Of a stretch of 64,000 bases of DNA, positions 1 to 20,531 are shown piece after piece (the stretch's first letter is position 1; every line of letters begins with the position of its first letter). Both the position numbers and the translations under genes were made by a program. The DNA is from a virus (lineage: Duplodnaviria > Heunggongvirae > Uroviricota > Caudoviricetes). The stretch lies in the IMG/VR virus record IMGVR_UViG_3300044294_000233, one strand, 5' to 3'. The notes below the pieces were generated by a model, which was given only the letters and a program-made list of their open reading frames with translations, was not told the DNA's origin and ran no database searches.

Positions 1-470
1 TGATTGTGGTCGGGATGTTATGGTACACGGTGATCGTAGTCGGGATGTTTGAAATAACCTCGATCACTGACGGAACGTCATCGGTCACCTCGATCACCGA
101 TGGGATGTCGTCGTACACGTCAATTGACGTGGGGATCTCAACGCCTTCTATGGTAATCACCGTGGGGATCACGCCCGCTTCGACCGTGATGACCGTTGGG
201 ATTACGCCGCCTTCGATCACAATGGCCGTGGGGATTTCCGGCCCGGTGATTGTGATCTCACTGGGTAGGTCTACGCCCCCGATGATTACGATCTCGCTCG
301 GAATGCTGATCGGCCCGAATTCGATCAGACTCGGAATGTTGATTGCCGGCTCGAACGTCACAATTGACGGAATGTCAATCGGCCCGATGGGACTGACGTT
401 GACGCACGGGATCACCAGAGGCGGGAATCCGATCTGTACCGTGGGCGGATTGATTTCGGGCAAGATCAAC
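1..470 (-). repeat. In-frame tandem DNA repeats of about 24 nt encoding the octapeptide repeats (V/I)IP(T/S)xIxV.
   Basis: The motif gatcac...ggggat recurs at 24-nt spacing. The translation reads ...GVIPTVITVEAGVIPTVITIEGVEIPTSIDVYDDIPSVIEVTDDVPSVIEV... Confidence 0.55.
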
Positions 471-1264
471 GGCGGGATGTCCGGCACTTCGCACACCGGC
501 ACGAAGAACTCCGTGATCGTGTTGATTTCGGCCGGTTCGGTCGGAGTCAAACGCACCGGCGGCGTCTGTGCGACGGTACACCTGTTGTTGCTCACTGTGA
601 CAACAGGGTCGATGATGGTGTTCGGAGCGTAGGTGTGCGTGCCTGACAGCAAGCTTTCGGTAAAACTCCCGTCACCGAAGTCGAGTCGGTAGCTGTTGTA
701 GTCTCCGGTCAGTTGGACGGTGAAGTTCACTACCGTACCGCTCGCGGGGTCGGTAGAAATTGTTACAAAGGTGAACACCACGTCAACGCACGAGAAGTCG
801 TCAAACAGGACGTTCTGTGCCTGGAGGTTTCGGATGCGCCAGTCGAGTGTCGATTGGTCTTCCGTAAAGTTGGTCCCGACGAACTGTTCGATGCGAAGGG
901 TCGCTTCCACCAACTGGTTGTGGTGTTCGGCCATCACGAAGCCACGCACGTCGGTCCCGGCCAAGTTGAACTGGGTGTGTACGCCGCCCAAGTTCCTGAC
1001 GCAATTCTTCAACGTCTTGACTTTGTCGTTGTCGTCAAGTTCGACGGAATCGTAGTAAAGAATCTCCCCCGAAATGGTGGCGAACCCGTTGTCCGGCCAG
1101 ATCTCGTCGGCGTCGGCAGCGACGGGCGCAATGGGAACCGTGTCCGACCACGCTTGGTTGTCGGCGGTGAGCCGGCTCTCCGTCGTGTTGTTCACGAGGA
1201 ATAGCGTCCCGTTGCTGTCAATCGCGAAGGGGAAAACGGGCTGTGGTGGAAATCCTTGTGGCAC
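1..1264 (-). CDS. Tail fibre / receptor-binding-like protein, partial (the 3' end runs off the window). It has a PKD-like domain and a C-terminal array of IPxxIxV octapeptide repeats.
   Basis: The minus strand is open from a GTG start at 1262-1264 with an AGAGG ribosome-binding site 4 nt upstream. The ORF track omits it, probably because it is truncated. The translation contains HHNQLVEATLRIEQF and LDFGDGSFTE, which are paralogous to the two upstream fibre genes. The plus-strand ORFs 6..632 and 713..1204 are its antisense. Confidence 0.6.
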   Translation of the reverse strand, partial: MPQGFPPQPVFPFAIDSNGTLFLVNNTTESRLTADNQAWSDTVPIAPVAADADEIWPDNGFATISGEILYYDSVELDDNDKVKTLKNCVRNLGGVHTQFNLAGTDVRGFVMAEHHNQLVEATLRIEQFVGTNFTEDQSTLDWRIRNLQAQNVLFDDFSCVDVVFTFVTISTDPASGTVVNFTVQLTGDYNSYRLDFGDGSFTESLLSGTHTYAPNTIIDPVVTVSNNRCTVAQTPPVRLTPTEPAEINTITEFFVPVCEVPDIPPLILPEINPPTVQIGFPPLVIPCVNVSPIGPIDIPSIVTFEPAINIPSLIEFGPISIPSEIVIIGGVDLPSEITITGPEIPTAIVIEGGVIPTVITVEAGVIPTVITIEGVEIPTSIDVYDDIPSVIEVTDDVPSVIEVISNIPTTITVYHNIPTTI

Positions 1265-1411
1265 AGAACCTCTTTACTTTTTTCGATTACCAGCACAGTA
1301 GTTTGGGGTTTGACTGTGGCAGTTGGGGCAAATGAATTTCAAGTTGTAAGGCTCATTGTTGAACCAGTCACCATCTTCGTGATGAACTTGTAACCTGATT
1401 TTCTTATTTAA

Positions 1412-3676
1412 TCAGTAAACACTCATTTGCCATTGCTCGCCGCTCGGCCTCGGATTCAGCGAGGTGAACGTGGTAGTTACTGCGTTGAACGTCATGAACG
1501 CTTTCGTGCTGTAGTCGTAACTCAAATAAGCTACGTTGTCGCCGTCCGAAGTCGCCAGAAGCGTGTTCTCGTCGGAATCGAAGTTGATCACAGTCGAGTC
1601 TTGCAACGCGCGGAACTGCGAGATGTTGGTGCCGGTGTTCGTTTGCCACACGCTCGTCGCGGCGTTGAACACGCTCAACTGCCCGGTGTTGTTGAAGAAG
1701 AACAGGCCGGGCGTCAACGACACCAACTGCCCTTCCAACTTCGCCGGCCCCGCCATCGGCGGCAGTTTGGTGATGTTCTTGAACTCGATACCGCCGACCT
1801 CTTCGGTCTTGTAGAAGTCCCTGATTCTGAAGAACGCCCCGACGCCGTCGTTCCTCAAAAAGAACCCGTTGTCCTCGTGCCAAGCTGAGCGGTAAACGCT
1901 GAAATCGCCGTCCACCGCGACACCGCCGCCGTCGTAGTTGGCCTTGTTGTTCATCAACTCGTCCGAGCCGTTGTCGTAGTTGCTCGTCGTCAGGTAATCC
2001 ACCGCGTAGTCCAGTGTCGCCAACGACATGGAGATCCGCGATTGATTGGTCGGCGAGGTGAACGGCGGGTAAGACGGCATAGTGCCGAGGATGAAGTACA
2101 AGTTGTTCAGCGAGTTGAATGCGACCCAGTTCCACTGTCTCGCAATCGAATCTTGAACGATGTATGTATCGGTGAACCCCGTGTATTGCATCAGGTTGAT
2201 TTGTTCCGAACCCACCGGGTCGGATGCGTTTCTGCCACTCGCCCAGTACAGCAGTCCCTGCCCCTGGCTGCCGGACTGCTGTGTGCCTATCGGGGCGAAC
2301 CCGTTGTTGCGTCGGAACTCGAACTTCTGTTTGTCTTCGTTCGCCACCCCGTTCAAAAAGTTGTTGTTCAACCCGATGGGGACCGAAATGCCGCTCTTGG
2401 TTTTGAACGTTTCGCTCAACAGGCCGAACTCGTATGACTTGATCGTCGTGCCGGTGCCGAACGTCCACAGCCACAGGTTCGTCTTCTCGATGATGTCGAA
2501 GCTGTTCTTGTAGCTGGTAATGCGGTACGCGCCGAAGGACGTGTCCACACGCAGCACCATGTCGTACATCCCGCCGATACCGAAGATCGCCTTCGTGTTC
2601 CGGCTGTTGCTGTGCAACTGGTCGTCGGGGATGTCCCATGTGTATTCCACAATCGGGTCAATCGGGAACCCCGACCCGTTCACGGCTTCGCCCGAATAGG
2701 TGCGGCCGGTTGACGGGTTAACGCCCGACTGAATTTCAATGTTGATGATTGAGTTCGTGACGGCGCGGATCACCGGCGTGGTTACGAACGGCCCGCCCAC
2801 CGGGTATCCCGGCGTCAGAATCTGGCCCGTCGCCGGGATGTATTCGACAATAGCGGGATCTGGGGCCGCGATCCGTGCCGTGATCAAGCCGGGGAACACC
2901 ACCGTGTCGGAGCAGAAGTCGTTGGTGGCTTTCAAGGACACGTCGTACACGCCCGGCGTCGTGTAGGTCTTCGATATGACACCGCCCGTCTCGTTGTCAA
3001 CCAAGACGTTCACCACGTTGACAGGCACCTCGCTGACAACCTCGATGATCGAGATTTGTGACGCCGTGTTGTCGCCGAAGTTCCACTCGAAAACCACGTT
3101 GCCCGCGTTCCCGTCCGTACCCAGGCGGAAACACAGGTTCGTGAACTCGACCTCGAACGGGACCAACCCGATAGTTTTGTTGACCGAGAACCACGCCTTC
3201 GGACAGAGTACGATCCTTCTCAAGAAGTTGATTCGGCCTTCCATCGTTGGCCCGAACGGTTCGTCGTCTTCCGTCCCTTTGACTCCGATGAACTCTTCGA
3301 TGGCGATTAACGCATCTTTGAGATGGTTGTGGTGCTTGTCCATCACGTTCATTGTGACGTTCGTGATGTTCGCGGGCTTCACGCCGTCAGTGAACTCTGG
3401 CAGGATTTCGATGCCGTCGAACGTGGTGTCGGTGTGGCTGCTGTAGAAGAACGAGATCGCTCGTTCTTCCGCCTCGCTGCACTGTTCCGTAAGCGTGATC
3501 AAACCGCTCGGAGGGAAGTTGTTCATCATCAGGTCGTTCTTGTGAACGGTGATGCTGGTGTCTCCGGGGTTGTAATCAGCGGCCAAAACGAGGCGCAACC
3601 CGTCGTGAACGAGAAACAGGTTTCTGTTTCCGTCGAACGAAGTGGGGAACAAACTTGCGGTTGGGATAGCCATCAA
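1412..3676 (-). CDS. Large tail fibre / receptor-binding paralog of 754 aa with a PKD-like domain.
   Basis: Its N-terminal module (FPTSFDGNRNLFLV, HHNHLKDALIAIEEF, FEWNFGDNTASQ...YDVSLKATNDFC) is shared with the genes at 1..1264 and 3673..4683. The C-terminus is long and divergent. Confidence 0.6.
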   Translation of the reverse strand: MMAIPTASLFPTSFDGNRNLFLVHDGLRLVLAADYNPGDTSITVHKNDLMMNNFPPSGLITLTEQCSEAEERAISFFYSSHTDTTFDGIEILPEFTDGVKPANITNVTMNVMDKHHNHLKDALIAIEEFIGVKGTEDDEPFGPTMEGRINFLRRIVLCPKAWFSVNKTIGLVPFEVEFTNLCFRLGTDGNAGNVVFEWNFGDNTASQISIIEVVSEVPVNVVNVLVDNETGGVISKTYTTPGVYDVSLKATNDFCSDTVVFPGLITARIAAPDPAIVEYIPATGQILTPGYPVGGPFVTTPVIRAVTNSIINIEIQSGVNPSTGRTYSGEAVNGSGFPIDPIVEYTWDIPDDQLHSNSRNTKAIFGIGGMYDMVLRVDTSFGAYRITSYKNSFDIIEKTNLWLWTFGTGTTIKSYEFGLLSETFKTKSGISVPIGLNNNFLNGVANEDKQKFEFRRNNGFAPIGTQQSGSQGQGLLYWASGRNASDPVGSEQINLMQYTGFTDTYIVQDSIARQWNWVAFNSLNNLYFILGTMPSYPPFTSPTNQSRISMSLATLDYAVDYLTTSNYDNGSDELMNNKANYDGGGVAVDGDFSVYRSAWHEDNGFFLRNDGVGAFFRIRDFYKTEEVGGIEFKNITKLPPMAGPAKLEGQLVSLTPGLFFFNNTGQLSVFNAATSVWQTNTGTNISQFRALQDSTVINFDSDENTLLATSDGDNVAYLSYDYSTKAFMTFNAVTTTFTSLNPRPSGEQWQMSVY

Positions 3677-4683
3677 AACACCGTGATTTTCTGTGACAGG
3701 AACACCCGCTTCAAAGTCTGGTCGGCGAAGATGACCATCAGGGAAGGAGAATAGGTTCCGGGTTTGGCGTATGAGTAATCCGCCGTGTGTACGTTGGGGT
3801 CGGTCACGTTGAGGTTGTTGCCGTCGCCGAAGATCCAGTACCGTTCGGACACCTCGCCATCGGTCTGGTCCACGAAGCTGAACGTCGTCGGCGATCCGGG
3901 GTTGGTTTCTATACTGTCGCCCTGCAACGGCAGGACATAGAAGAACGGTGTCTTCTGGTCCTTGTTGACAGTGACGTAGTTCTTCTTGGTGACGACCCCC
4001 TGTGCGCCGGTGCCGGTAATGATGTTCAACTTGACGGTGTACACGCCCTCGGCCAAATAGGTGTGGATCGGCGAGCGTTCGACCGATGTCGTGCCGTCAC
4101 CGAAGTCCCACAGGAACCGAACCGGGTTCCCGACCGTGAAGTTTTGGAACCGCACCTTCAGCGGCGGCGCACCACGGATCGGAAAACCACGGAACAACGG
4201 CTTCGGGGCCAAGAATCGGTTTTCTTGTGCTTGGAGGATACCGTTCAAGCTGAATTCGTTCGGGAACTGAGACAGACCCAGGTCGCGTTCAATCTGCATG
4301 ATCGCGTCCTTGATCGCGTTGTGGTGTTCCGCCGCCACGCCACTGGTGATCGGCGAACCCTGCGGCCAGTAGGTCTGTTTCGTTTTGGCGAACCCGCGAA
4401 TGAGTTTGCTGAACGAGGTGGCAGTTTTCGCCCCGTACCAGACCAACTCGCCAAGCCCCGGATCGCCGGGGTTCTTGCCGATGTGCAAGATGCCGGTGTC
4501 GGGGAACAGGGACGTGTCCTGCACGATCATGAACTTCGAGTTGAACGTAACGCTCTGCCGAAGTGATGTGATCGCCGCGTTCCGGGCTTCGTAAAGCGAG
4601 ATCCACGAGTCGAGGGTGGTCGGGAACGTCGAAAGGTCGCCTGTCGAGTAGTTCGAGTCGAGGGTCGAAATCTGATCAGCCAT
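3673..4683 (-). CDS. Short tail fibre / receptor-binding paralog of 336 aa with a PKD-like domain.
   Basis: It carries HHNAIKDAIMQIERDLG and VRFLWDFGDGTTSV...VYTVKLNII (a PKD-like WxFGDG motif). It overlaps the neighbouring genes by 4-8 nt, consistent with an operon. Confidence 0.6.
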   Translation of the reverse strand: MADQISTLDSNYSTGDLSTFPTTLDSWISLYEARNAAITSLRQSVTFNSKFMIVQDTSLFPDTGILHIGKNPGDPGLGELVWYGAKTATSFSKLIRGFAKTKQTYWPQGSPITSGVAAEHHNAIKDAIMQIERDLGLSQFPNEFSLNGILQAQENRFLAPKPLFRGFPIRGAPPLKVRFQNFTVGNPVRFLWDFGDGTTSVERSPIHTYLAEGVYTVKLNIITGTGAQGVVTKKNYVTVNKDQKTPFFYVLPLQGDSIETNPGSPTTFSFVDQTDGEVSERYWIFGDGNNLNVTDPNVHTADYSYAKPGTYSPSLMVIFADQTLKRVFLSQKITVF

Positions 4684-5407
4684 TCAGGGCCACCTTCATT
4701 TGAGCAAGCTGTTTCTTTTCCATCAGTCGTTTCGCTTCCAAAATCTCTTGCTGCCGATTCAGGATGCCGAACATTTCTTGTTTCACGACGGTTTCGTCTG
4801 GCAGCGACAGGATCGCTTTCGCCAGTTCCCCGTCCACCCGGCCGTCGAGCATAAACTTCATGTTCATCTCGTTGGAGAACCGCGTCGTCCAGTATTCCTT
4901 CTGGGCGTTGAAGTCGTCGTACTCGATGACTTTTTGGTTCTTGGTCAGGTCCGCGAACGCCTGCAAGAAGAACGCCGCTTCTTCCTCTGTGTCTTTTTGG
5001 CGGGCGTCCAAGTCTTTCAGCGCCTTCTTCATCGACTTGAGCTTTCGCTCGGACTGCCGGATCTTGATTTCACGCCGCTTCAAAGTCAGTTCGTCTTCTT
5101 CCGGCACGTCGATGCCGAACGCTCCCTTCCGGGGGTTTTTCAGCCGTTCGATGTCGATCTCGGCCAGTTCGATGCGGTCGTTGGTTTCGTCACGTTCCAA
5201 CTGGATGGCTTCGAGTGCGTCTCGGCGGGCCTTCATCTCACGGAGGCACTGCCAGATCTTGGCCTGCGGCGTCGGCTCCTTCCCGACGATGAAGTATTTA
5301 AGCTGAAAGTACGAATGCCTGCCCGTCAAAGGGTGTTTTTCCACCACGGCTTGCAGGTTTTCTAAGGTTGATTTTGATTCCACCGCAATGCTGTTCTCTG
5401 TTGACAT
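4676..5407 (-). CDS. Coiled-coil protein of 243 aa, the first gene of the fibre operon. It may be a fibre assembly or chaperone protein.
   Basis: The sequence is charged and heptad-rich (ELAEIDIERLKN...KRREIKIRQSERKLKSMKKALKDLDARQ). A divergent intergenic region lies upstream at 5408-5600. Confidence 0.45.
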   Translation of the reverse strand: MSTENSIAVESKSTLENLQAVVEKHPLTGRHSYFQLKYFIVGKEPTPQAKIWQCLREMKARRDALEAIQLERDETNDRIELAEIDIERLKNPRKGAFGIDVPEEDELTLKRREIKIRQSERKLKSMKKALKDLDARQKDTEEEAAFFLQAFADLTKNQKVIEYDDFNAQKEYWTTRFSNEMNMKFMLDGRVDGELAKAILSLPDETVVKQEMFGILNRQQEILEAKRLMEKKQLAQMKVALNG

Positions 5408-5600
5408 GCTCGCTCCGTTCGGATAATTTGACTTTGCGCCGAAAAACCGGCTACAACATAGTAGAGTTACCTTCTCCCAGAAGGGTCACGATCATGGACT
5501 TTCTCAAAGGCCAAGAGTGCTACCTCAGCGGCCCCCTCTTGCTACCTCTCTGGATTTGACGAGCCGTGGATGCTTGACTCCTTCAACTACAAGGTGAGAA

Positions 5601-6119
5601 ATGTCTAATTTCCTTAACGGTCAACTGGCATATTTGAGTGGTCCAATCGAACAGTGTTCCGCCAAAGCAAACTGGCGTCCCGAAGTCATCAAAACGCTCA
5701 CCGAACGCTACGGGATGAACGTCTTCGACCCTCACGCCGACCCCAAACAACAGTGGGCCGACGACTTGAAGAAGGCCCGTACCGAAAAAGACTACGCGAC
5801 GATGGCGAAGATCGCGCGTAAGTTCGTTCGCAAAGACCTTCAAGTGGTCCAGCGGTCTGACCTCGTCATCGCCTACCTGCCGTTCGGGGTTCCGACCACG
5901 GGCAGCCACCACGAGATCTTCCTCGCCAATCTACTCAAAAACCCCGTGCTGCTCGTCTGTCCGCAAGGCAAAGAGTATAATCCTCTGTGGTACTTTGGGT
6001 TCATCCCCGACGATCAGATGTTCGGGAGTTGGGACGAACTCTACCAGTACCTCGACAAAGTTCATAACGGCGAGATGAAGTACAACTACCGTTGGGACTT
6101 CATCTGCAACTTACTCTGA
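5601..6119 (+). CDS. Nucleoside 2-deoxyribosyltransferase-like protein (DNPH1/Rcl-like fold).
   Basis: AYLSGPIEQ at the N-terminus and TTGSHHEIFLANLLKNPVLLV match the family pattern YLAGP ... SxGTxxExGxAxxxxKP. Confidence 0.45.
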   Translation: MSNFLNGQLAYLSGPIEQCSAKANWRPEVIKTLTERYGMNVFDPHADPKQQWADDLKKARTEKDYATMAKIARKFVRKDLQVVQRSDLVIAYLPFGVPTTGSHHEIFLANLLKNPVLLVCPQGKEYNPLWYFGFIPDDQMFGSWDELYQYLDKVHNGEMKYNYRWDFICNLL

Positions 6120-6126
6120 GGCAGCA

Positions 6127-6747
6127 GTGTCAGACAAACCCTACTTCGGCGTGTGGCAGTATCTCGGCATCGTCAACGAAGGGACGCCGAAGGTTGCGGC
6201 CGAGGTGATGAACGTTTCCAACAAGAAAACGTGTACCGTCAACCACCGCCAGTTCGACAATATGGCGGTCGGCTCCTACTACACGCACGAAACGAAACAC
6301 TGGAAAGCGGTCCAGATCACCGAAGATCAAATTCCGGTCTTGCTCGAAGAACAACAACAAGCAATGGAAAAGATCGAGGCGGCTGCTCGGAAGAAGAAAG
6401 AAGACAACATCGCCACGGGGCGGTTCCAATACTTCTACACCGAGTACAACGGCGGCAAGGCCGAGAACATCATCGAGTTCCTCAGTGACAAAGTCGAGGA
6501 CTTCTGGAAGATCTTGGCCGACAACCTCAACAGCGGCCAACGCACTTGCGGACGCCCCCGTGAGAACCCGCTGACGGTCGATCAACTCAAGCAAGAAGAG
6601 AGAATGGTCAAGTTCATGTCGGTGGTGCAGCCGGGCGACAAGCTCGAATGGTACACTTGGAATGGCGGTTTCCTGGCGTTCTCTTCCGGCCCCTGCATTA
6701 CGCGGGACGGGGCGCAAATCGCCTACACGCCGTGGATGGCGTCCTAG
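6127..6747 (+). CDS. Hypothetical protein.
   Basis: Clean 206-aa ORF with balanced composition, immediately after the preceding gene. Confidence 0.45.
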   Translation: MSDKPYFGVWQYLGIVNEGTPKVAAEVMNVSNKKTCTVNHRQFDNMAVGSYYTHETKHWKAVQITEDQIPVLLEEQQQAMEKIEAAARKKKEDNIATGRFQYFYTEYNGGKAENIIEFLSDKVEDFWKILADNLNSGQRTCGRPRENPLTVDQLKQEERMVKFMSVVQPGDKLEWYTWNGGFLAFSSGPCITRDGAQIAYTPWMAS

Positions 6748-7202
6748 TATTCGTCTTCGGGCGTCCAGAGCCTCTTCTTCTGGATGTCTTCTGGCGAGAC
6801 GACGATGGCGGGTATTGTTTTGACGCCCGCCTTTTTGTACGCCCAGTACCTGTGATGCCCGTCAATGATCTGATATTTGAAACGCGAGTTCGGAACCCCT
6901 CCGACCGACAGCATTTTGTTCCCGTCCCACCTCGGATTTGACTTCCCCTTCAGTTTCACTTCGCGGACGTAAACCGGCGGCATCTTCTCGCCGGCCTTGA
7001 TGCCAGCAAGGATCTTCTGCATGTTTTCCCGGCTGGCCGGGAGGTCCATTTTGGAGGCCCGCTCGTAGTTTATGATGCTGTCGATGTCCAGCATTTGAAC
7101 AGGCTCGTCGGCGAACGTGTCGTCCACCATAGCGCCTTTCGACTGGGGGCTGGTATAGATCGTGACACGGGTCGTTTCGACCCACTGGGTGAACGTGAGC
7201 AT
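6744..7202 (-). CDS. ParB/Srx-like nuclease-domain protein.
   Basis: KYQIIDGHHRYWAYKKAGVKTIPAIVV matches the ParB N-terminal domain motif (DGxHR ... IP). Confidence 0.5.
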   Translation of the reverse strand: MLTFTQWVETTRVTIYTSPQSKGAMVDDTFADEPVQMLDIDSIINYERASKMDLPASRENMQKILAGIKAGEKMPPVYVREVKLKGKSNPRWDGNKMLSVGGVPNSRFKYQIIDGHHRYWAYKKAGVKTIPAIVVSPEDIQKKRLWTPEDEY

Positions 7203-7215
7203 GAGCTATTTATGC

Positions 7216-7764
7216 TCAACACATCCGACAACCGGCGACGGCTTTGAACTTGCAGTTCTTGCCGTGGGCTTCCAAGAACCACATCATCTTGCAGATTTCG
7301 AGCGGGTTGTCGTCGGCGAATTTGCCGACCTCTTTGAAGGTGTCCCGGTGAATGGTCAGGCCGTTCATCGGAGCGTCGAGGAAGTTGTGGAAACCAAAGA
7401 TGAGCGGGAAGAAGATGTCCAGACGGCTTTCCATGAAGGGCGAATACTTTTTGTCGAGTTGTTCTTTAACTCGAACCCCTGCCATCACTATTACGTTCCA
7501 TTCGGCCGGCGGCTTCGACATACCGGCGTTGATCAGCGAGGTCAGTGAACCCTTCCCCGTAATTGCTGACTTGTGAATGTGCTTGAAATCTGGAGGGGAA
7601 ACCATTTCGGTTTTGGCTCCAGGGTACGCGCGATCTATGCTGCTCAGGGTAGTGAGGGGCTTGTACGGGTCGGCGTCAAAACACAGGACAATGAATCCGA
7701 GGTCCATAGGCACCGGCCTGTAAGCCATTTTGTTGACGACTACAGGTGACGTGTCTTTTTTCAT
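7216..7764 (-). CDS. Family 2 glycosyltransferase (GT-A)-like protein.
   Basis: FIVLCFDADPY resembles the DxD motif. The C-terminal GLTIHRDTFKEVGKFADDNPLEICKMMWFLEAHG resembles the GT2 acceptor region (RRxxFExxGGFDE...ED). Confidence 0.4.
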   Translation of the reverse strand: MKKDTSPVVVNKMAYRPVPMDLGFIVLCFDADPYKPLTTLSSIDRAYPGAKTEMVSPPDFKHIHKSAITGKGSLTSLINAGMSKPPAEWNVIVMAGVRVKEQLDKKYSPFMESRLDIFFPLIFGFHNFLDAPMNGLTIHRDTFKEVGKFADDNPLEICKMMWFLEAHGKNCKFKAVAGCRMC

Positions 7765-7777
7765 CCACTAGCTCGCA

Positions 7778-8554
7778 TCAGGTGAGGGCAACGTCGAAAT
7801 CGACCCGGATCACATCGTCCAGAGTCAGCGGCGTCATGAGTACAAACTTGCCGGTCGTTTCGTCCCCGGTGAACCCCTGAAGTGTCCACGCTTCGGACAC
7901 CGTAGAGCCTGGGACGTACACATCGCCGTCGTCAAAAATCCTGACACCGTTGATCGCCACACGCAGACTGCCTGCGATGTAGTTCGGGTAGCCGATCTTA
8001 TAGTGCTGGAAGTCGGGCGTTCCGTCGTACTGCGGGGTGATCCCGTAGTAATGTTTGTGTGCCGAAGAGATCGGGAACGTCAGGTTGGCCTGAACCTTGT
8101 TCGGCGCGACCGTGTTCCACGTCACCCCGTCAGACGGGATGAATTCCACCGGCCCGGTGTCAAAACTGGTAATGACGGACGGCGTGTTGAATTCTAGCGT
8201 CATGTTGGTCGCCCCGTCAGCGATCAACGCCAATTTCTCACGCTCATCCAGCTTCATGCGGACGTATGCCACGGATTCGTAAGTCCCATCGGCGTGAGCG
8301 CCGATGTTGTGGAGCGTGCCGTCAACCGCCGAAACCCTCAAGCTGCCGTCGTCGTTCAAGCTCTGGCCGAGGCGTGCGCTGACCGTACCCTGACTTCCGA
8401 CCGCTTGTCGGAGAATGTCGGAGTTGATGTCAACGGCACTGTTGATCAACTGCATCCGCGTGATCAACGCCTTCAGCGGCAGGTTGTCGAAATCGACGTG
8501 GTACGGCTGGAGAGCTTGATACTGCGGTACTGGAATCAGGTCAATCTGTGGCAC
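7778..8554 (-). CDS. Hypothetical structural protein (fibre- or baseplate-associated?).
   Basis: 258-aa ORF rich in Thr, Gly and Asn and predicted beta-rich, lying inside the structural operon. Confidence 0.4.
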   Translation of the reverse strand: MPQIDLIPVPQYQALQPYHVDFDNLPLKALITRMQLINSAVDINSDILRQAVGSQGTVSARLGQSLNDDGSLRVSAVDGTLHNIGAHADGTYESVAYVRMKLDEREKLALIADGATNMTLEFNTPSVITSFDTGPVEFIPSDGVTWNTVAPNKVQANLTFPISSAHKHYYGITPQYDGTPDFQHYKIGYPNYIAGSLRVAINGVRIFDDGDVYVPGSTVSEAWTLQGFTGDETTGKFVLMTPLTLDDVIRVDFDVALT

Positions 8555-8591
8555 GGTCCTCCTCGGCGGGTTACTTTATCTACGGTTCAGA

Positions 8592-9104
8592 TCAGATTTT
8601 GGCGAGCAGACCGAGGTTGTAATAATCGAGTTCGATGAACTCTTTCCACGCCCCGCCCTCGCGGTCGTGGTAGCTCGCCCCTTTGTTCATCCACTGAAGC
8701 TCTGCCTCCTTGTGATCCCCGTAGTACCCAAGAAGTTCTTCGCCGGCCGGGATGTCCCTCGTGAACCTGTAAATCACTTGTCCCGCGTCGTTGCTTCTCC
8801 GTGCCAGCCCGCGAGCGAATTCGAGTTTGACATTCTGTTTCGCGGTGTCCGGGGTGTGATTTATCATCCCGCCGTAGCCCATCGGCACGATGTTGGCCTC
8901 TTGGTTGTCGTGACCGTTGAACTTGTATCTGGTCGCGTAGGCGGTACACTTGTCGGCGATGCCGCCTTTCTTGACGTAGACGCCGATCACCTCGATGTAG
9001 TCGCCCTTCTTCAGATCCACGGCGGCGAAACACCCCATGCCGGCGTTCTCAATTGTCGATGGCATCAACGCGAACCGCAGATCGGTTTCTTCTACGAAAT
9101 TCAT
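8592..9104 (-). CDS. SET-domain protein (putative protein lysine methyltransferase).
   Basis: NAGMGCFAAVDLKKGDYIEVIGVYV matches the SET N-terminal GxG/FA pattern. GYGGMINHTPDTAKQNV corresponds to NHSCxPN, and IPAGEELLGYYG to the GEEL...Y motif. Confidence 0.5.
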   Translation of the reverse strand: MNFVEETDLRFALMPSTIENAGMGCFAAVDLKKGDYIEVIGVYVKKGGIADKCTAYATRYKFNGHDNQEANIVPMGYGGMINHTPDTAKQNVKLEFARGLARRSNDAGQVIYRFTRDIPAGEELLGYYGDHKEAELQWMNKGASYHDREGGAWKEFIELDYYNLGLLAKI

Positions 9105-9954: not shown

Positions 9955-10974
9955 CTATTTTGCGAACGTTTTTTTGTTTAACAATCTACTGATGCTCGAC
10001 TGTGATGTGCCGATAATGCTTGCGACCTCTTCTTGATCCTTACCTTCTGCCAGAAGCCTTAATGCTTGCGTTCTGTCTTCTGCGGTCATTTTTTTGTGTT
10101 GTCGCACCATCGGGTTTCCCAGATGTTTCCATCCTTGCCCAGAAGCGATGCGTGTCACACACGCTTCGGTCACACCAAATATGGCCGCGACTTCTTTACG
10201 AGAACGACCTATCTGCCTCAACCGAAAAATCTCCTGCGATTTCTCGTCGTTTAATTTAGACTTTCCGTGGTTGGCTCCCTTGTTGTCTTTCTTGACGTAC
10301 CCGGAGGTGTCCGTTTTGTAACCGAAGCAGTCCCACTTGATCTCTGGCCTTATAATGTCAATGAATTCAAAATACGCTTCACGGTTGACACGAAGTAAAA
10401 ACTGACTGCGGTCTTTTTTGACTCTCGACTTGACAGCCTTGATCGACAAGTCACGTTTCATTACTTCCGCCAGGAAAACAACCTCTTCTTCGGTAAAACC
10501 ATTGGTGCATAGTTTGGCTTGGGCGTCTCTAGCTTGATTGACCCCGTCATCCATGTACCATATCGCCATCGATAGCGGAGTCAGTTTGAGATCGTTAGGA
10601 ATGACCTTCCTGATTCTGCCGTTCACCAACTGAGGGGCATACCACTTCTTGCCCATTTCCGTCCAAATCAGATGATTGCAAGACTCATATCTCCAAGTCG
10701 GATATGGTTCACACTGCACTCGACCGATCTTGCCGTCGATAATTTTGGCTCGATGAGACTTCATAACAATTTTTGCACATCTGGACCAGCCTCCTAGCTC
10801 ATCTAAAAAAAACTGCATGTAGCTTTCTTTTGGAAAGTTTTTATGATCGGCAAAGCTCTGCTGAATCAGCCAATTCCAGTTAACAGGTTGACGGCTAAGA
10901 CAGCCATCGCCAAGCATACTTCCTATGAATATCTCATGCTGACGGGTAGTCAATTGCGGGTATAAATTCTTCAT
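9955..10974 (-). CDS. LAGLIDADG homing endonuclease with tandem C-terminal helix-turn-helix domains.
   Basis: Two LAGLIDADG-type motifs are present (IFIGSMLGDGCLS and MAIWYMDDGVNQ). The C-terminus has two sigma70 region-4-like HTH repeats (EIFRLRQIGRSRKEVAAIFGVTEACVTRI; ALRLLAEGKDQEEVASIIGTSQSSISRLL). GC is low relative to the flanks. Confidence 0.7.
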   Translation of the reverse strand: MKNLYPQLTTRQHEIFIGSMLGDGCLSRQPVNWNWLIQQSFADHKNFPKESYMQFFLDELGGWSRCAKIVMKSHRAKIIDGKIGRVQCEPYPTWRYESCNHLIWTEMGKKWYAPQLVNGRIRKVIPNDLKLTPLSMAIWYMDDGVNQARDAQAKLCTNGFTEEEVVFLAEVMKRDLSIKAVKSRVKKDRSQFLLRVNREAYFEFIDIIRPEIKWDCFGYKTDTSGYVKKDNKGANHGKSKLNDEKSQEIFRLRQIGRSRKEVAAIFGVTEACVTRIASGQGWKHLGNPMVRQHKKMTAEDRTQALRLLAEGKDQEEVASIIGTSQSSISRLLNKKTFAK

Positions 10975-11004: not shown

Positions 11005-11481
11005 TTAGACAAAATTAACCGACCAAGACCATGTGATCTGCATGGCGTCAGTCTTGTTGAGGTCTGGGAACGTCGCCAGACTGTACAAGTCGCCGCTGTT
11101 CATTACCAACGCCATTTCGTTCAGGGCGTACCCGTTGGCGTCGTTAAACGTCAACACGCTGGTAAACACGGCTTTGCTAGGGGTCGTCGGGTCCACGCTC
11201 GCCACGACGGGCTTACTCGCCCGCGTCAAACCGTAAAGGCCGTTCCTGTTCGTGTCAACGAACTTCGGAACGCCCCCGGACGTGCCGCCGTCGCCGAAAA
11301 TCATTCGGCTGACGTAGAAATTGAACCCGTCACTAAGGGAGTTGCTCAGGGCTGCGGCCAGAGCCGCCCGTCCCCGCCTCATGACGCTGTTGTTGAACCG
11401 CAAAGTGTCTTTGCGGCCGTCTTTGTATTCGATGACGGCTTCGACCCAACCGATACATTGCACTTGGTCTTCGGTTTTCAT
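11005..11481 (-). CDS. Hypothetical tail or baseplate-associated protein.
   Basis: 158-aa ORF with a 4-nt overlap with the upstream gpI-like gene. Confidence 0.4.
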   Translation of the reverse strand: MKTEDQVQCIGWVEAVIEYKDGRKDTLRFNNSVMRRGRAALAAALSNSLSDGFNFYVSRMIFGDGGTSGGVPKFVDTNRNGLYGLTRASKPVVASVDPTTPSKAVFTSVLTFNDANGYALNEMALVMNSGDLYSLATFPDLNKTDAMQITWSWSVNFV

Positions 11482-14400
11482 AGGCTCCCCTCTTCGACTG
11501 TTCCGTCCGCGTAATCAATGCGGAAGTTGATTTTCTCTTCTTGTTTCACAAAGTCAGAGAACCCCGGCTCTGGGGCGGCTGCCATGCTCATCGCCATCGG
11601 CGACATCGTCTCCGTGACGGAGGTGATCACTTCCGAGTTCCGCCGGTCGAGCCGCTGGAACGGCACGCCCGCCACAGTCACCGGAAGAGTTTCGTAGTTG
11701 TAAATCTCGAACGGCACGCTCGTCCCCCCGTTACCCAAAGTCGTCCAGTAGTGAATGTCACCGTCCAGGGTGATCGTAGTCCCGTCGATGTCGGCAATCG
11801 CAAAAGTCTCTTCATCCGCCCCGTTGACTGGGTCATTGATCACGACGATGAAGTTCTCTTTGAACTTGCTGTCTTCCAGCGGAACCAGTACCGGGTTTTG
11901 GCCGTTCGAGATGCCCAACGACGATTCGTAGTTGATCACCGTGTTCAGGCCGATACCCTGATAAGTAAGTAAGCCGTACCGCGTATCGATCAGCCGATCA
12001 TACAAAGCGATACTCTTTCCGCCCACCGAACCGCCCGACCAGCCGTTGATGTAAAACTGGTGTGTCTCGCCGTCCACCAATTCACTGACGACGTACTGGT
12101 CGCCGGTATCGTTGTAGTACAAAAAGTATTGCCCCGCGAGCGGCTGGATCATTACCCCGCGAACGTCGGTCAGCACCCCGTCCGTGACAGTTACCAGTCC
12201 GCGAAGCTCAACCGACAAATTCAAGGTGCCTGTGTGTGCCACGCTCGCGTCCGGGCGGATGATCGAATAGGCCACACCCGTCGCGTTCACGTTTGGCAGG
12301 GAAGGGTCTTGAGCGATCACGATCTCGCCTTCGGGCTTTATGTCTTGGATCGTGTACGGCGTGGCACTGTACGCCGTCATCTTGATCGTCCAGGCCGTCG
12401 TAGCGTACCCGTTGTCAACGTCCCACTGGCTCTTGACGCCCAGTTCTGCCAAGTCCCAAGTCGCGTCCTTCAACTTGTAGAAATTGTCGGTCACAATGGA
12501 GGTGTCGGAGTTTTCGTAAATGATGTTCGACAGGCTGAACGAGAAGGCCGACTGATTGATCGGCTCCGTCAATGGCGATGTCGGCGAGATTGGGCCGTAA
12601 ACTTCGACCGCGTGTCCGACCGCGTTGGTGACTTGGTAGTTACCGGCGTGCGGGTGCGGGCCGTAGATTTCTAGCACCGTTTCGGTCGGGTCGGTACTCA
12701 GGCCGGTGTTGCTGATCGGAACGTCCGGCGAGAACAACATGATCTGTCTGTTGTAGGCTGTGGCGGTTCCGCTCGCTACGAGCGTACTCGTAGCGAGGGT
12801 GTTTCTCAGAATTTGGTCGAGCGGCATGCCGCTCGGAATCATCGCGCGGTTGAAGACCATTTGATCGCTGCCGGCGATTACTGTCTCGCTCCCGCGATAG
12901 TAAATCAGGCACTCAATCGTCTCGACGGGCGGCTGAACGAAGTCCTCCATCGAGCCGCTGAAGTTGATGGTCTGGGGCAGGGCGTGAAACGGGACGAACT
13001 CCTTCAGGATGTCTTTGGCCTCGTTCACCCGGTCGTCGCAAAGGCGGTCAACTTCAATGTCGATGATGTACTTGCTGCCCAAGCACTGGCTGCACGGGTC
13101 AACGAAGTCCTTGTCCATGTCGCACGGTTCGAGACTGTCCCTAATCGAGCCGTTGTATTCGTCCATGTTATAGACGTTTTCGCTGTACGGGAACTCGGTC
13201 CTGATCTTACCGAACACCAAGAAGTCGTGGTACGGGTGCTTGTTGGGAATCAAGATCGAAAACAACGGGTCGTTCTCTTCGAGCAGTCGAACGTTCCAGT
13301 TTTTCGGCGGGTAGTCCTGAACCGTTTCGTCCCGCTGATCGGTCAACGGCAACAAACGAATGTAGTCCTCGATGTCCTGTTGCGTCGGGTTCGGGATCGC
13401 CGCGTACTGGTACAGCACTCGAAGGATGTCGCCGTTTTCGAGCGAGATGTTGTTCTCAATCGTTAGTGTGCTGACGCCGTCCGATGTGTTGATCGACACG
13501 TCTGATGGCAGGTAGTCCGTGTAGTACGAGTTGCCCGCCTTTCTGACGGACACTTCAAAGTTGTCTGAATCAATTGGTTGTGCGACACGGGACAGCACGA
13601 ACTCCATTTCGCCGCCGGCCGCTTTGAAGGTTTCCACCCATGTGTACGGCGAAATGATCTGCCAGCCGCGAACCAAGCTCGTCATCCTCATGCCGGCCAA
13701 ATCGAACGCCATCTCCAGCCCGGCGCGAGTTCCCTTCATCTTGTAAAGCGGCACCGCCAACTTGATCTGCTTCCGCCAACGGGTCGGGTCTTCGCTCCTC
13801 AGCTTCAGCCCGAACATCCGCCCCAGAAGGCCCAAGAACGCCTCGTCAGTCGAGTTGGCGTCCATGATGTCCAAGATCTGGTTGGCGAGATTCTCCAACA
13901 CCGTGAACCCCTGGCCGACCGATTTGTTGAATCTGGTCAGAACGGACGGGGTCACGTCGTCTTCGGAGAGCGTGGATTTGTACATCTCTGGGAGGTATGT
14001 GTCCAGCAGAGTTTGGTACTTTTCCGGCGGCGTGGCGTGGGTCGGGATGCTCGTGGTGATGGCGTTGTTGCCCATCAACGAGAAGGAAAGGTTTTGCGAA
14101 AGCGTTTCCCCGGCCGCGAGGGGCGTCCACGTCCAGCACGCGATGTAGTTGCCCTCTCGCATACCCACCGGGTTCCAAACGTATTGGAAGTGGCCGTATA
14201 CGGTGTTACCTTCCTCGTCAAGCGGTACGTTTTCGATGAGAGCGTTGGGTGTGTCGGTCGAGAGCCAAGCGGGATAAGACGAGTTGCCGATCACCGCAAC
14301 GGGGACGGCGTCGTTGTAATACACGGGTCGCGAAACCCTCATGGAGTCGGCCTGGGCGCGTAGTTTTCGCGCCTCAAGAATGTTCTCCTGAGTCGGGTCA

Positions 14401-14633
14401 AGGCACGCCGCGTTCTGTGCTTCGGTCGCCGCCCGCTCCGCGTCTTGGTTCCGGGTTTCAACGTCAAATTGCGTGACGTTGCCGCCTGAGAAGTCGCGTT
14501 CGATGTAGTAAATGGTCAGGTTGTTGACCATGTAGGGGTTCTGGAGCAAGCATTGGTCGGCGTCGGGGGTCAAGAAAGGAATGACCACCGTATCCGTAAC
14601 ACTCGGCACCTCATAGATTGTTTTCTCTGCCAT
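11478..14633 (-). CDS. Baseplate protein with a P2 gpI-like N-terminal region and a C-terminal extension of about 700 aa.
   Basis: FLGLLGRMFGLKLRSEDPTRWRKQIKLAVPLYKMKGTRAGLEMAFDLAG resembles the tail protein I family signature. It lies directly after the Baseplate_J-like gene, the same order as P2 W-J-I. Confidence 0.5.
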   Translation of the reverse strand: MAEKTIYEVPSVTDTVVIPFLTPDADQCLLQNPYMVNNLTIYYIERDFSGGNVTQFDVETRNQDAERAATEAQNAACLDPTQENILEARKLRAQADSMRVSRPVYYNDAVPVAVIGNSSYPAWLSTDTPNALIENVPLDEEGNTVYGHFQYVWNPVGMREGNYIACWTWTPLAAGETLSQNLSFSLMGNNAITTSIPTHATPPEKYQTLLDTYLPEMYKSTLSEDDVTPSVLTRFNKSVGQGFTVLENLANQILDIMDANSTDEAFLGLLGRMFGLKLRSEDPTRWRKQIKLAVPLYKMKGTRAGLEMAFDLAGMRMTSLVRGWQIISPYTWVETFKAAGGEMEFVLSRVAQPIDSDNFEVSVRKAGNSYYTDYLPSDVSINTSDGVSTLTIENNISLENGDILRVLYQYAAIPNPTQQDIEDYIRLLPLTDQRDETVQDYPPKNWNVRLLEENDPLFSILIPNKHPYHDFLVFGKIRTEFPYSENVYNMDEYNGSIRDSLEPCDMDKDFVDPCSQCLGSKYIIDIEVDRLCDDRVNEAKDILKEFVPFHALPQTINFSGSMEDFVQPPVETIECLIYYRGSETVIAGSDQMVFNRAMIPSGMPLDQILRNTLATSTLVASGTATAYNRQIMLFSPDVPISNTGLSTDPTETVLEIYGPHPHAGNYQVTNAVGHAVEVYGPISPTSPLTEPINQSAFSFSLSNIIYENSDTSIVTDNFYKLKDATWDLAELGVKSQWDVDNGYATTAWTIKMTAYSATPYTIQDIKPEGEIVIAQDPSLPNVNATGVAYSIIRPDASVAHTGTLNLSVELRGLVTVTDGVLTDVRGVMIQPLAGQYFLYYNDTGDQYVVSELVDGETHQFYINGWSGGSVGGKSIALYDRLIDTRYGLLTYQGIGLNTVINYESSLGISNGQNPVLVPLEDSKFKENFIVVINDPVNGADEETFAIADIDGTTITLDGDIHYWTTLGNGGTSVPFEIYNYETLPVTVAGVPFQRLDRRNSEVITSVTETMSPMAMSMAAAPEPGFSDFVKQEEKINFRIDYADGTVEEGSL

Positions 14634-14636
14634 GCC

Positions 14637-16199: not shown

Positions 16200-16627
16200 T
16201 GTACTCCACCTACTGGTAGTTCGATTACCACGGCATCGACCTCTTGAATGTTCTCAGGATCGAAGAACCTGATCGTAATAGACATCACGTTCTCCAAGTC
16301 TTCTTTGGGATCTTGAGGGTTTAATTGACTTTCGTCCGCACTGTTTTTAACGGTGATTTCTTGAACCGTTATTCTCGGCTCCCACAGGTTGATCGAATTG
16401 ATGATCGCCTGTCGCACGCTCTCGGCCGAGATCGCGTCGTTCTGCTCGAAGATGAACTTCTTGAGGGGCGTGCCGTAAGTCGGCAGCATCACCCTCTCGC
16501 CGGGGTTGGTGAGCAGCAACTGCAAAAGATCGGACTTGATCTGACTGATGCCCCCGCTCGATCTCAAGTATCCTCGCGGGTGCGGTGTAATGGGATAAGG
16601 AACACCCAAAAACTTCATTGCCGGCAT
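16196..16627 (-). CDS. Baseplate wedge protein, gp25 / GPW family.
   Basis: IKSDLLQLLLTNPGERVMLPTYGTPL...INLWEPRITV matches the GPW_gp25 conserved core (GERxMxPxFG ... EPRI). Confidence 0.7.
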   Translation of the reverse strand: MPAMKFLGVPYPITPHPRGYLRSSGGISQIKSDLLQLLLTNPGERVMLPTYGTPLKKFIFEQNDAISAESVRQAIINSINLWEPRITVQEITVKNSADESQLNPQDPKEDLENVMSITIRFFDPENIQEVDAVVIELPVGGVQ

Positions 16628-16641
16628 TTATCCTCTTTGAA

Positions 16642-20525: not shown

Positions 20526-20531
20526 CTCGGT

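Follow-up and report, generated by a model that had tools for sequence, protein, structure and literature searches.

Three contiguous paralogous genes with a common N-terminal module in a huge-phage-like genome and their probable role as tail appendages

One end of the DNA analysed here (the window, 64,000 nucleotides of a phage whose native contig is 476 kb) carries three neighbouring genes, which a sequence-only reading had taken for a receptor-binding set with a conserved anchor and diversified tips that would broaden the host range. The locus raises the question of whether the three proteins are related, where in the virion they might be placed and which of their distal parts do vary among relatives. 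The analysis partly supports the earlier interpretation.

The three genes and their common N-terminal module

The three genes are present where they had been placed and lie contiguously on the minus strand. They are called here gC, gB and gA, in their order within the cassette, and their features are as follows.

3673..4683, minus strand: gC, first gene of the cassette, 336 aa, module and two PKD domains
4189..4683, minus strand: N-terminal module of gC, aa 1-165
3676..4176, minus strand: PKD1 (aa ~170-240) and PKD2 (aa ~245-336) of gC, from Pfam and the model
1412..3673, minus strand: gB, 753 aa, module, PKD, linker, PKD and a unique 362-aa C-terminal domain
3194..3673, minus strand: N-terminal module of gB, aa 1-160
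2498..3193, minus strand: PKD1 (aa ~161-265), linker and PKD2 (aa ~331-392) of gB, from Pfam
1415..2497, minus strand: C-terminal domain of gB, aa ~392-753, with many invariant Trp/Gly/Arg/Asn positions
1265..1411, minus strand: gap between gB and gA, 147 nt, outside the putative fibre proteins
1..1264, minus strand: gA (partial), third and variable gene of the cassette, GTG start at 1264
785..1264, minus strand: N-terminal module of gA, aa 1-160, consisting of N-terminal peptide, small beta-barrel, HHN helix and second helix
560..784, minus strand: divergent PKD-like domain of gA, aa ~161-235, LDFGDG...GTHTY
1..337, minus strand: start of the gA repeat array, from aa 310 onwards, continuing past the window edge

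The proposed GTG start of gA and its running off the window are borne out. An in-frame stop lies three codons upstream of the GTG, the N-terminus of the gA family reads M..FPPxPxYP, and the window holds only the first 421 aa. The gene is absent from the supplied list of open reading frames because this list omits frames cut by a window edge. For gB the most likely start is the ATG at 3673, which lies one codon within the frame opened by the TTG at 3676 and overlaps the TGA stop of gC by one base. The gap between gB and gA is 147 nt long in the window against 4-14 nt in relatives. An HNH-like reading without a start codon is found in this gap (LQVHHEDGDWFNNEPYNLKFICPNCH), for which the Pfam HNH model gives E 0.057 only, and it is kept as a side observation. 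A scan of positions 1..5600 for promoters and terminators yielded sites no more numerous than in shuffled sequence.

As judged from sequence, the presence of a common N-terminal module and a PKD or PKD-like domain in the three genes is real. The module is ~160 aa long and precedes the PKD or PKD-like domain in gA, gB and gC. Pairwise BLASTP gives E-values of 2e-6 for gA and gB, 2e-6 for gA and gC and 1e-9 for gB and gC. Profiles of the module that left one family out at a time and excluded the window's own sequence were compared with 644 six-frame ORFs of the window. The gC-family profile retrieves gB (7e-12) and gA (1.5e-10), with the next ORF at 8.7, while the gB-family profile retrieves gC (5e-10) and gA (8e-10) ahead of the next-ranked ORF at 0.76. 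The motifs quoted earlier are all there, in the form (F/Y)P..D....L(F/Y), HHNxxxxA...IE..xG and (W/L)xFGD(G/N). The three modules align without indels across the barrel strands and the HHN helix and have invariant P, D, G, Y, V, HHN and G positions. A joint profile detects exactly three copies in the window and no further one, the 2599-aa ORF and the gpI-like protein included. In a database of 5.8 billion sequences, the N-terminus of gA also cross-matches gC-like PKD proteins (3e-7 to 4e-4).

Outside the window, about 2000 protein clusters begin with the module, at their very N-terminus, and continue into bodies of 138-2055 aa. Among the top 150 representatives, module type tracks body type with one exception, so that module shuffling is not apparent. 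No Pfam family or PDB sequence is significantly similar to the module, and PDB sequence searches with gB, the full-length gA of the relative L003 and the module profile returned nothing informative; matches to a nanobody and to TpLRR were at chance level only and were rejected. PKD is the sole Pfam family found in gA, gB and gC at E <= 0.1. The P2 gpH-type tail fibre N-terminus (PF12571) is absent from the three proteins, and the T7 gp17-type one (PF03906) is not matched by them. Whole gA and gB have zero PHROG matches.

The AlphaFold2 (AF2) model of the module (pLDDT 81.4, and >90 over the barrel) predicts a six-stranded small beta-barrel, a helix capped by the nearly invariant HHN and a second helix. 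In the gC model, the barrel spans residues 38-114 and the helices residues 120-135 (HHN) and 146-158. The N-terminal peptide (F/Y)P..D....L(F/Y) is conserved, and it is poorly ordered in the monomer model. Foldseek against BFVD gives 76 matches at E <= 1e-3, with annotated tail fibres at probability 1.00. The top named ones are tail fibres of Burkholderia phages DC1 (the 336-aa I6NVP1) and BcepMigl and of Escherichia phage ECML-117, and S74-chaperone fibre proteins and one 'lower baseplate protein' are also among the top matches. The closest solved anchors are those of the GP4 tail fibre (8jov), AP22 gp54 (4y9v), the phi297 tailspike (4ru5), K64-1 S2-4 (9k4a) and Phi92 gp150 (6e0v). As modelled, with an N-terminal barrel and helix superposable on solved anchors, the module fits the structural class of tail-fibre and tailspike N-terminal anchors. 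However, the solved podophage fibre and tailspike anchors have no significant sequence similarity to the module, and only the module family has the HHN helix cap and the N-terminal peptide. The compared anchors come from podophage tail fibres and tailspikes, whereas the phage studied here is huge-phage-like with a contractile tail. In addition, PKD domains, and not a beta-helix, come after the module here. In the PDB, the full gC model matched PKD/Ig-like arrays only, and no solved protein joining anchor and PKD was found.

A significant sequence similarity of the barrel is seen with giant proteins at the gp7 position of T4-like cyanophages, such as S-RSM4 SRSM4_151 and the gp7-like protein of S-CRM01 (profile positions ~29-106), and by tblastn the barrel turns up in such giants in 61 T4-like cyanophage records. 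These giants (1454-3515 aa) are encoded directly after gp25 and gp6. In them the barrel is internal and repeated, and neither the HHN helix nor the N-terminal peptide is shared. Unlike in the cyanophages, a different, 1051-aa gpI-like protein occupies the gp7 position in the window. Twelve of 33 module sequences match phrog_2885 'baseplate wedge subunit' (best 1e-13) and phrog_4406 'virion structural protein' (6.5e-13), gC of the window reaching 1.5e-4. These matches cover only ~60 of 4179 and 3231 profile positions, located in the barrel, and therefore point to a shared domain rather than to membership of either family.

PKD domains and distal parts

The presence of a PKD-like domain in all three proteins, as read earlier, is borne out. 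With Pfam gathering cutoffs of 23.5 bits for PKD (PF00801) and 27 bits for PKD_4 (PF18911), gC (79.8 and 57.3 bits, PKD_4 79.8; two domains) and gB (41.3 and 32.9 bits; two domains) lie above the cutoffs, as do ten relatives of gB. The copy in gA is divergent and remains under the cutoff (21.1 and 17.0 bits; PKD_4 E 3.3e-4), and the L003 orthologue of gA has zero Pfam PKD matches. However, hhalign relates the gA copy to PKD1 of gC (88% probability, E 3e-6, 34 columns), which makes 'PKD-like' an accurate name. The models of gC and gB superpose on solved PKD domains, a PKD/Ig-like family that includes those of collagenases ColH/ColG, SorCS2 and bacterial adhesins.

As had been noted, the paralogs have unrelated C-terminal parts, each of which is conserved inside its own family. 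The 'short form' of gC is indeed short, but it ends with a second PKD domain. What had been described as a 500-aa Ser/Thr/Asn-rich domain in gB consists of a linker, PKD2 and the unique C-terminal domain. This 362-aa domain contains 27% S+T+N and 14% aromatic residues, against 17% and 8% in other large proteins of the window. It has no Pfam family, PHROG family or PDB sequence relative, and a Pfam scan of the domain in ten family members at E <= 1 gave nothing. A beta-propeller was considered and rejected, as hhalign self-comparison revealed no internal repeat. The gB family profile weakly matches bulb-type lectins (1xd5 E 0.0063, 1xd6 0.22, 1jpc 0.46), all at profile positions ~643-712 (the last ~70 aa), and the QxDxNxVxY mannose-binding residues of these GNA-like, beta-prism II lectins are mostly not conserved in gB.

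The repeat of gA had been read as an octapeptide, which does not hold. Autocorrelation peaks at 10/11, 20-22 and 30-33 and motif starts spaced by 10 or 11 residues give a period of 10-11 aa, with the consensus IP(T/S)xIxhxGx, and Ile+Val+Pro make up 49% of the array. At the DNA level, the array in the window contains one weak tandem repeat only (33-nt x 2.5), and so it is not a recent expansion. By sequence, both the gB C-terminal domain and this IP(T/S)xI repeat shaft appear to be without known relatives.

Genomic context and variability among relatives

The cassette lies downstream of, and on the same strand as, genes for the hub, a gp6-like wedge, the gpI-like protein and a small gpH-N-like protein, with ~6 kb of partly non-structural-looking genes between this baseplate block and the cassette in the window.

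4676..5407, minus strand: charged coiled-coil-like protein, 243 aa, with an 8-nt overlap between its stop and the gC start; phrog_1409
11005..11481, minus strand: 158-aa protein directly after the gpI-like baseplate gene, conserved in relatives
11478..18756, minus strand: baseplate block, which gives the cassette its context
11478..14633, minus strand: protein at the gpI/gp7 position (1051 aa), in the baseplate block
14637..16199, minus strand: gp6-like wedge, in the baseplate block
16642..18756, minus strand: hub with Phage_base_V, in the baseplate block

In relatives, gp25 is located between hub and wedge, and the protein preceding gC keeps its position (231, 236, 217 and 214 aa). Relatives also carry a Maf/MptE-like gene downstream of gA. 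The 158-aa protein scores 21.1 bits against PF12571 (Phage_tail_fib, the P2 gpH-type N-terminus; cutoff 23) and matches phrog_5417 at 1.8e-8, which makes it a candidate fibre adaptor.

The order gC, gB, gA is kept in six further loci, one of them a 595-kb GenBank phage. Exactly three contiguous module genes in this order are found in L003, L008, LR756511, L010 and L011, and in L014 gC and gB likewise stand ahead of a variable slot. In the window, L003, L008, L010 and L014 the cassette comes after the baseplate block, without a change of strand; in L011 it is located between neck (gp13-like) and gp15/sheath genes, away from the baseplate genes. At the nucleotide level, LR756511, an unannotated record, is the only known phage matched (185 nt, 69%). 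Neither the phage nor its host has been cultured, and none of the cultured phages in the collection searched belongs to the clade; the place of the three proteins in the virion is therefore inferred, as are trimerisation, docking partner and receptor binding.

Across the clade, gB and gC are 51-60% identical at 100% coverage and of fixed length. In the best-scoring 120 homologues of each, the distal domains are about as conserved as the anchor (0.50 in the C-terminal domain of gB vs 0.57 in its module barrel; 0.53 in PKD2 of gC vs 0.45 in its barrel) and distal indels are absent, which is not the pattern of a mosaic tip. Conserved along their whole length, the two proteins are not diversifying tips, and the earlier suggestion of diversified tips and a broadened host range does not fit them.

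Variability is confined to the gA slot and concerns array length, body type and gene number. The array form is 514-906 aa long in complete representatives (the L003 orthologue has 954 aa), and the body in this slot is a repeat array, an RCC1 propeller or Kelch-like among relatives. Regions of the gA-type N-terminus (~320-350 aa) joined to differing bodies are 54-56% identical, and in the L013/L014 lineage this region is duplicated, giving two gA-type genes. The C-terminal part of the gA slot is thus exchanged independently of the anchor, as is characteristic of mosaic tips. As length and body are exchanged here, gA would be the likeliest determinant of host specificity. Of the arrangement read earlier, the anchor is supported by the Foldseek matches to tail fibres, the baseplate context and the N-terminal module, but tips vary in the gA slot alone.

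Possible roles of the cassette

On balance, we consider it probable, though with some reserve, that gC, gB and gA are virion proteins, paralogs of ancient origin, and that the tail most likely carries them as three kinds of fibres or appendages. By analogy with the N-terminal domains of tail fibres and tailspikes, the module would dock each protein on the tail, the baseplate or an adaptor, and its helices would probably bundle the chains into a trimer. The PKD (Ig-like) domains may act as spacers or weak glycan binders. Distally, gC has nothing past its second PKD domain, gB carries its conserved aromatic- and Ser/Thr/Asn-rich domain, and gA would form a long beta-rich shaft of repeats that varies in length and closes with a small conserved end containing Cys. 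The proteins gC and gB would then be constant virion parts across the clade, and gA a slot in which length and body are exchanged.

Other readings of the locus have to be considered. It is improbable that the three proteins decorate the head, neck or collar as Hoc-like or whisker-like fibres, with the barrel docked on capsid or neck proteins and PKD domains that adhere weakly to surfaces or glycans. Phage decoration proteins often carry Ig-like and PKD domains, the conservation of gB and gC resembles that of core structural proteins and not that of host-range determinants, and the L011 cassette stands between a T4 gp13-like neck gene and gp15/sheath, where in T4 the whisker gene wac has its neighbourhood. 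However, the best structural matches that include the helices are tail fibres and tailspikes, not capsid proteins, the cassettes of the window, L003, L008, L010 and L014 share a strand with the baseplate block they follow, and the sequence links lead to cyanophage baseplate-position proteins. These same links could place gB and gC at the baseplate periphery, as wedge- or 'tripod'-type parts without a receptor role, leaving only the gA-type proteins as fibres; the common module would in that case serve as a building block of baseplates in general. The barrel recurs in cyanophage giants annotated as baseplate wedge subunit or initiator, the conservation and fixed length of gB and gC are core-gene-like, and the gA slot alone varies. 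But the cyanophage annotations are positional, the barrel is shared without the helices, the module, like a fibre anchor, opens proteins that are otherwise independent, at their very N-terminus, and the aromatic- and polar-rich C-terminal domain of gB, with its faint lectin-like signal, resembles a ligand-binding head more than a scaffold. We regard a peripheral role of this kind as unlikely.

It is also conceivable, though very improbable, that the modules of gC, gB and gA form an obligate heterotrimer of one chain each, joined by barrel and HHN helix into a single asymmetric three-armed appendage with two constant arms (gC and gB) and one exchangeable arm in the gA slot. The strict contiguous co-occurrence in fixed order at all loci examined would suit such an assembly, as would the tight packing of the genes (the base shared by gB and gC, the short gaps of the relatives), the indel-free alignment of the modules with their common invariant positions and the near absence of mixing of module and body types among the three families. 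Fixed synteny, however, is equally expected for three separate fibres. The very unequal body lengths would leave chains unpaired, the L013/L014 lineage, with two gA-type genes to a single gB and a single gC, departs from a simple 1:1:1 stoichiometry, and in the solved examples known to us fibres and tailspikes with a similar anchor are homotrimers. If the heterotrimer were true, receptor specificity would be changed by swapping one chain of a trimer; we know of no such change described for phage fibres.

Three separate kinds of appendage, which we prefer, have parallels. Bcep22-like podoviruses carry 3-4 consecutive tail-fibre genes, and JC1 gp56 has been found in virions by mass spectrometry (PMC9144972). 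In these Burkholderia phages the sets are gp56, gp57, gp59 and gp60 in DC1 and gp56, gp57 and gp59 in JC1. Translations of the consecutive DC1 fibres reveal a similar N-terminus and differing C-terminal parts, like gC, gB and gA. Structurally, fibres of DC1 and BcepMigl match the module as described above; as sequence relatives the DC1 fibres were rejected (best E 0.056, no HHN). The Bcep22-like fibres are short (~290-350 aa) and have neither PKD domains nor the HHN helix, and unlike in those sets, two of the three paralogs here are invariant across a large clade, with only the third varying. In GP4, three fibre sets are held by one adapter (PMC11445570). Several appendages per virion, as proposed here, are also present in Phi92, CBA120 and the Klebsiella jumbo phage K64-1; the Phi92 and K64-1 proteins gp150 and S2-4 are among the structural matches of the module. 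In such phages with several receptor-binding proteins, the appendages are tailspikes with enzymatic activity and differ among closely related phages, whereas no enzymatic domain was found in gA, gB or gC and two of the three are invariant.

A literature search for PKD tail fibres of huge phages returned nothing specific. To our knowledge, huge phages (400-700 kb) are known from metagenomes only and their host recognition is almost unstudied. As a multi-fibre set with a common anchor, the cassette has a design that is already familiar from smaller phages, and its description is useful rather than surprising. For one large clade, the analysis delimits a conserved cassette of three probable appendage genes and makes recognisable their putative attachment module, with a nearly invariant HHN and no Pfam model, in about 2000 protein clusters. 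Because gA is the variable one of the three, the gA slot would be the gene to examine for host prediction and for specificity switches.

Three adjoining paralogs and their N-terminal module

Three consecutive minus-strand genes at the left end of the window, named gC, gB and gA in cassette order, are confirmed as proposed from the sequence alone, with gA starting at a GTG codon and leaving the window.

Genes of the cassette and the gene next to gC
3673..4683, minus strand, gC, 336 aa
1412..3673, minus strand, gB, 753 aa from the ATG
1..1264, minus strand, gA, GTG start, 421 aa and then the window edge
4676..5407, minus strand, 243-aa protein, 8-nt overlap with the gC start, highly charged and coiled-coil-like, phrog_1409 (unknown function)

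The ATG of gB overlaps the TGA stop of gC by one base, and a TTG one codon 5' of this ATG is the mechanical ORF start. An in-frame stop lies three codons before the GTG of gA. The same contig seen elsewhere (L001) adds 53 gA residues, and the full-length orthologue from the syntenic relative L003 is 954 aa in length. A gene similar in size to the one at 4676..5407 is kept at this position in all relatives examined, and its product might act as a fibre assembly factor. The gap between gB and gA (1265..1411, minus strand) is 147 nt long in the window versus 4–14 nt in relatives. Read in frame past the gB stop it gives LNKKIRLQVHHEDGDWFNNEPYNLKFICPNCH... up to a stop, which is devoid of a start codon and HNH-core-like (Pfam HNH at E 0.057 only), and it may be what remains of a homing-endonuclease insertion.

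Pairwise BLASTP gives E values of 2e-6 for gA/gB, 2e-6 for gA/gC and 1e-9 for gB/gC. Because the joint module profile included the window's own sequences, the test was repeated with single-family profiles lacking the window member, against the 644 ORFs found in six frames of the window. With the gC-family profile, gB comes up at 7e-12 and gA at 1.5e-10 (next ORF 8.7); with the gB-family profile, gC is recovered at 5e-10 and gA at 8e-10 (next ORF 0.76). The window holds exactly three copies of the module. About 160 residues are collinear in a 33-member alignment of the three families, in which P, D, G, Y, V, HHN and G positions do not vary; when 5.8 billion sequences were searched, the N-terminus of gA cross-matched gC-like PKD proteins at 3e-7 to 4e-4. 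Judged by sequence comparison, the similarity among the three N-termini, which the sequence-only reading had described, is real.

Fold and spread of the module

An AlphaFold2 model of the module alone, computed from 45 diverse sequences, has a mean pLDDT of 81 and exceeds 90 over the barrel. The modelled fold comprises a small barrel of six strands (residues 38–114), a helix from the HHN motif (120–135) and a second helix (146–158). The first ~35 residues are conserved yet poorly ordered. Conservation is highest, and confidence in the monomer model lowest, in the N-terminal peptide and at the HHN helix cap; surfaces that become ordered only once docked or oligomerised are expected to behave in this way. 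Both may become ordered so, and the helices would bundle the chains.

In a Foldseek search of predicted viral structures most matches are tail fibre proteins at a probability of 1.00, among them those of Burkholderia phages DC1 and BcepMigl. The barrel is also related by sequence (PHROG matches down to 1e-13; 61 cyanophage records by tblastn) to domains within the giant 'virion structural' proteins at the gp7 position of T4-like cyanophages; the helices are not part of this relationship. The module has neither a Pfam model nor a PDB sequence relative. When 1.84 billion representative proteins were searched exhaustively with its profile, 2002 clusters contained it at E ≤ 0.001 (908 of them at E ≤ 1e-10), nearly always at the extreme N-terminus of proteins of 138–2055 aa.

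Constant gB and gC, variable gA

The module is followed by PKD domains, two in gC (79.8 bits) and two in gB (41.3 bits). The copy in gA scores 21.1 bits, under the Pfam cutoff, and is related to the first PKD domain of gC by profile comparison (88% probability, E 3e-6). The gene gC, earlier called a short form, consists of the module and two PKD domains. A single 500-aa Ser/Thr/Asn-rich domain had been assigned to gB; this stretch resolves into a linker, the second PKD domain and a unique 362-aa domain with 27% Ser+Thr+Asn (17% in other large window proteins) and 14% aromatic residues (versus 8%). A faint bulb-lectin-like signal in this C-terminal domain (E 0.006) is at most a lead. The repeat array of gA stands, with a period of 10–11 residues rather than eight: autocorrelation peaks fall at 10–11, 20–22 and 30–33 residues, motifs start every 10 or 11 residues with the consensus IP(T/S)xIxhxGx, and the copies have diverged at the DNA level.

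The gB and gC families are conserved end to end (51–60% identity, 100% coverage; 750–770 and 336–355 aa, respectively). Among the best-scoring 120 homologues of each, the distal domains are gap-free and similar to the anchor in conservation: in gB 0.50 for the C-domain versus 0.57 for the barrel, and in gC 0.53 for the second PKD domain versus 0.45 for the barrel. Among the top 150 representatives, a single case departs from the pairing of each module subtype with its own body type. Contiguous gC, gB and gA, in this order and with exactly three module genes, occur in relatives L003, L008, L010 and L011 and in the GenBank phage LR756511.

Complete gA-type proteins vary in length between 514 and 906 aa, in step with repeat number (r = 0.74), and keep a small C-terminal end, ...VYKGxPI...C(V/F)AIVPC. 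In the lineage of relatives L013 and L014, two gA-type genes occupy the gA slot; their N-terminal ~320–350 aa are 54–56% identical and their bodies are RCC1 propellers (2055 and 2243 aa) or Kelch-like (753 aa). The 2055-aa giant of L014 is followed by an 842-aa gene (14172..16700) with a protease-like N-terminus (phrog_20754, 5.6e-8), the C-terminal ~190 aa of which are 42% identical to the C-terminus of the 2243-aa protein of L013 (1270..8001). This likeness points to a gene having been split or fused at the variable slot. At the level of sequence, then, the cassette is two constant paralogs plus one variable slot. The earlier fibre reading holds for a common fibre-type anchor with differing bodies, but its diversified distal tips apply, through length and body exchange, to the gA slot only and not to gB and gC.

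Orthologues of gA were mostly recovered as fragments of 168–514 aa, many on contigs of 1–7 kb, and the window edge also falls inside the array (1..337). The array may break metagenome assemblies, leaving gA-type genes under-represented or truncated in databases.

Genomic setting and possible arrangement in the virion

The native contig is 475,914 bp in length and those of relatives reach 691 kb; the sole match in the GenBank phage collection is LR756511, an unannotated 595-kb uncultured phage. A baseplate block lies upstream of the cassette on the same strand, separated from it by ~6 kb of mixed genes.

Genes upstream of the cassette
16642..18756, minus strand, hub with Phage_base_V domain
14637..16199, minus strand, gp6-like wedge protein (phrog_219, 4.5e-28)
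11478..14633, minus strand, P2 gpI-like protein
11005..11481, minus strand, 158-aa protein directly after the gpI-like gene; P2 gpH-type tail fibre N-terminal domain (21.1 bits, cutoff 23); phrog_5417 (1.8e-8)
9955..10974, minus strand, LAGLIDADG homing endonuclease with C-terminal HTH (phrog_11023, 2e-17)
8592..9104, SET-domain protein
6744..7202, ParB_N-like protein
5601..6119, opposite strand, nucleoside 2-deoxyribosyltransferase-like protein

A gene of 157–177 aa occupies the position of the 158-aa gene in L003, L008, L010 and L014, while the LAGLIDADG gene is missing at the equivalent position of L003. Non-structural-looking genes are scattered between baseplate and fibre genes at 5601..9104. 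Elsewhere, a 2599-aa ORF (21071..28870, minus strand) belongs to no PHROG family and has chance-level Pfam matches only, and a tRNA nucleotidyltransferase-like protein (37097..38647, plus strand; phrog_2244, 5.5e-20) fits the reports of translation-related genes in huge phages. Directly 3' of gA in relatives, beyond the window edge, are genes for a 269–301-aa protein that resembles MptE/Maf (PF01973) below threshold, for a Glyco_transf_9-like protein and for an actin-like protein of the Volactin family (L003 16243..17079, 19180..20175, 20462..21017; L008 14161..15066; L013 10295..11188, 13320..14276, 14545..15561). With a glycosyltransferase-like gene adjoining a repeat shaft that bears Ser/Thr, one may ask whether the fibre is glycosylated.

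The best fit to these observations is a tail with appendages of three kinds, all attached through the same type of N-terminal module. The 158-aa gpH-N-like protein would be a candidate adaptor, the PKD domains could serve as spacers or weak glycan binders, the conserved domain of gB might bind a conserved surface component, and gA may combine a shaft of adjustable length with an exchangeable body. A neck or head location is suggested by capsid-domain matches and by the cassette of L011, which sits between gp13-like and gp15/sheath genes; set beside the fibre proteins that dominate the structural matches of the module, we consider it improbable. Equally improbable is that gB and gC, conserved end to end, are scaffold proteins of the baseplate periphery and not receptor binders. 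The strict synteny also fits a heterotrimer made of the three paralogs, which appears less probable still.

Bcep22-like podoviruses carry three to four consecutive tail-fibre genes, one of them confirmed in virions by mass spectrometry (PMC9144972), and in GP4 one adapter holds three fibre sets (PMC11445570). A multi-fibre set with a common anchor is an already known kind of system, of which the present cassette is a further example.
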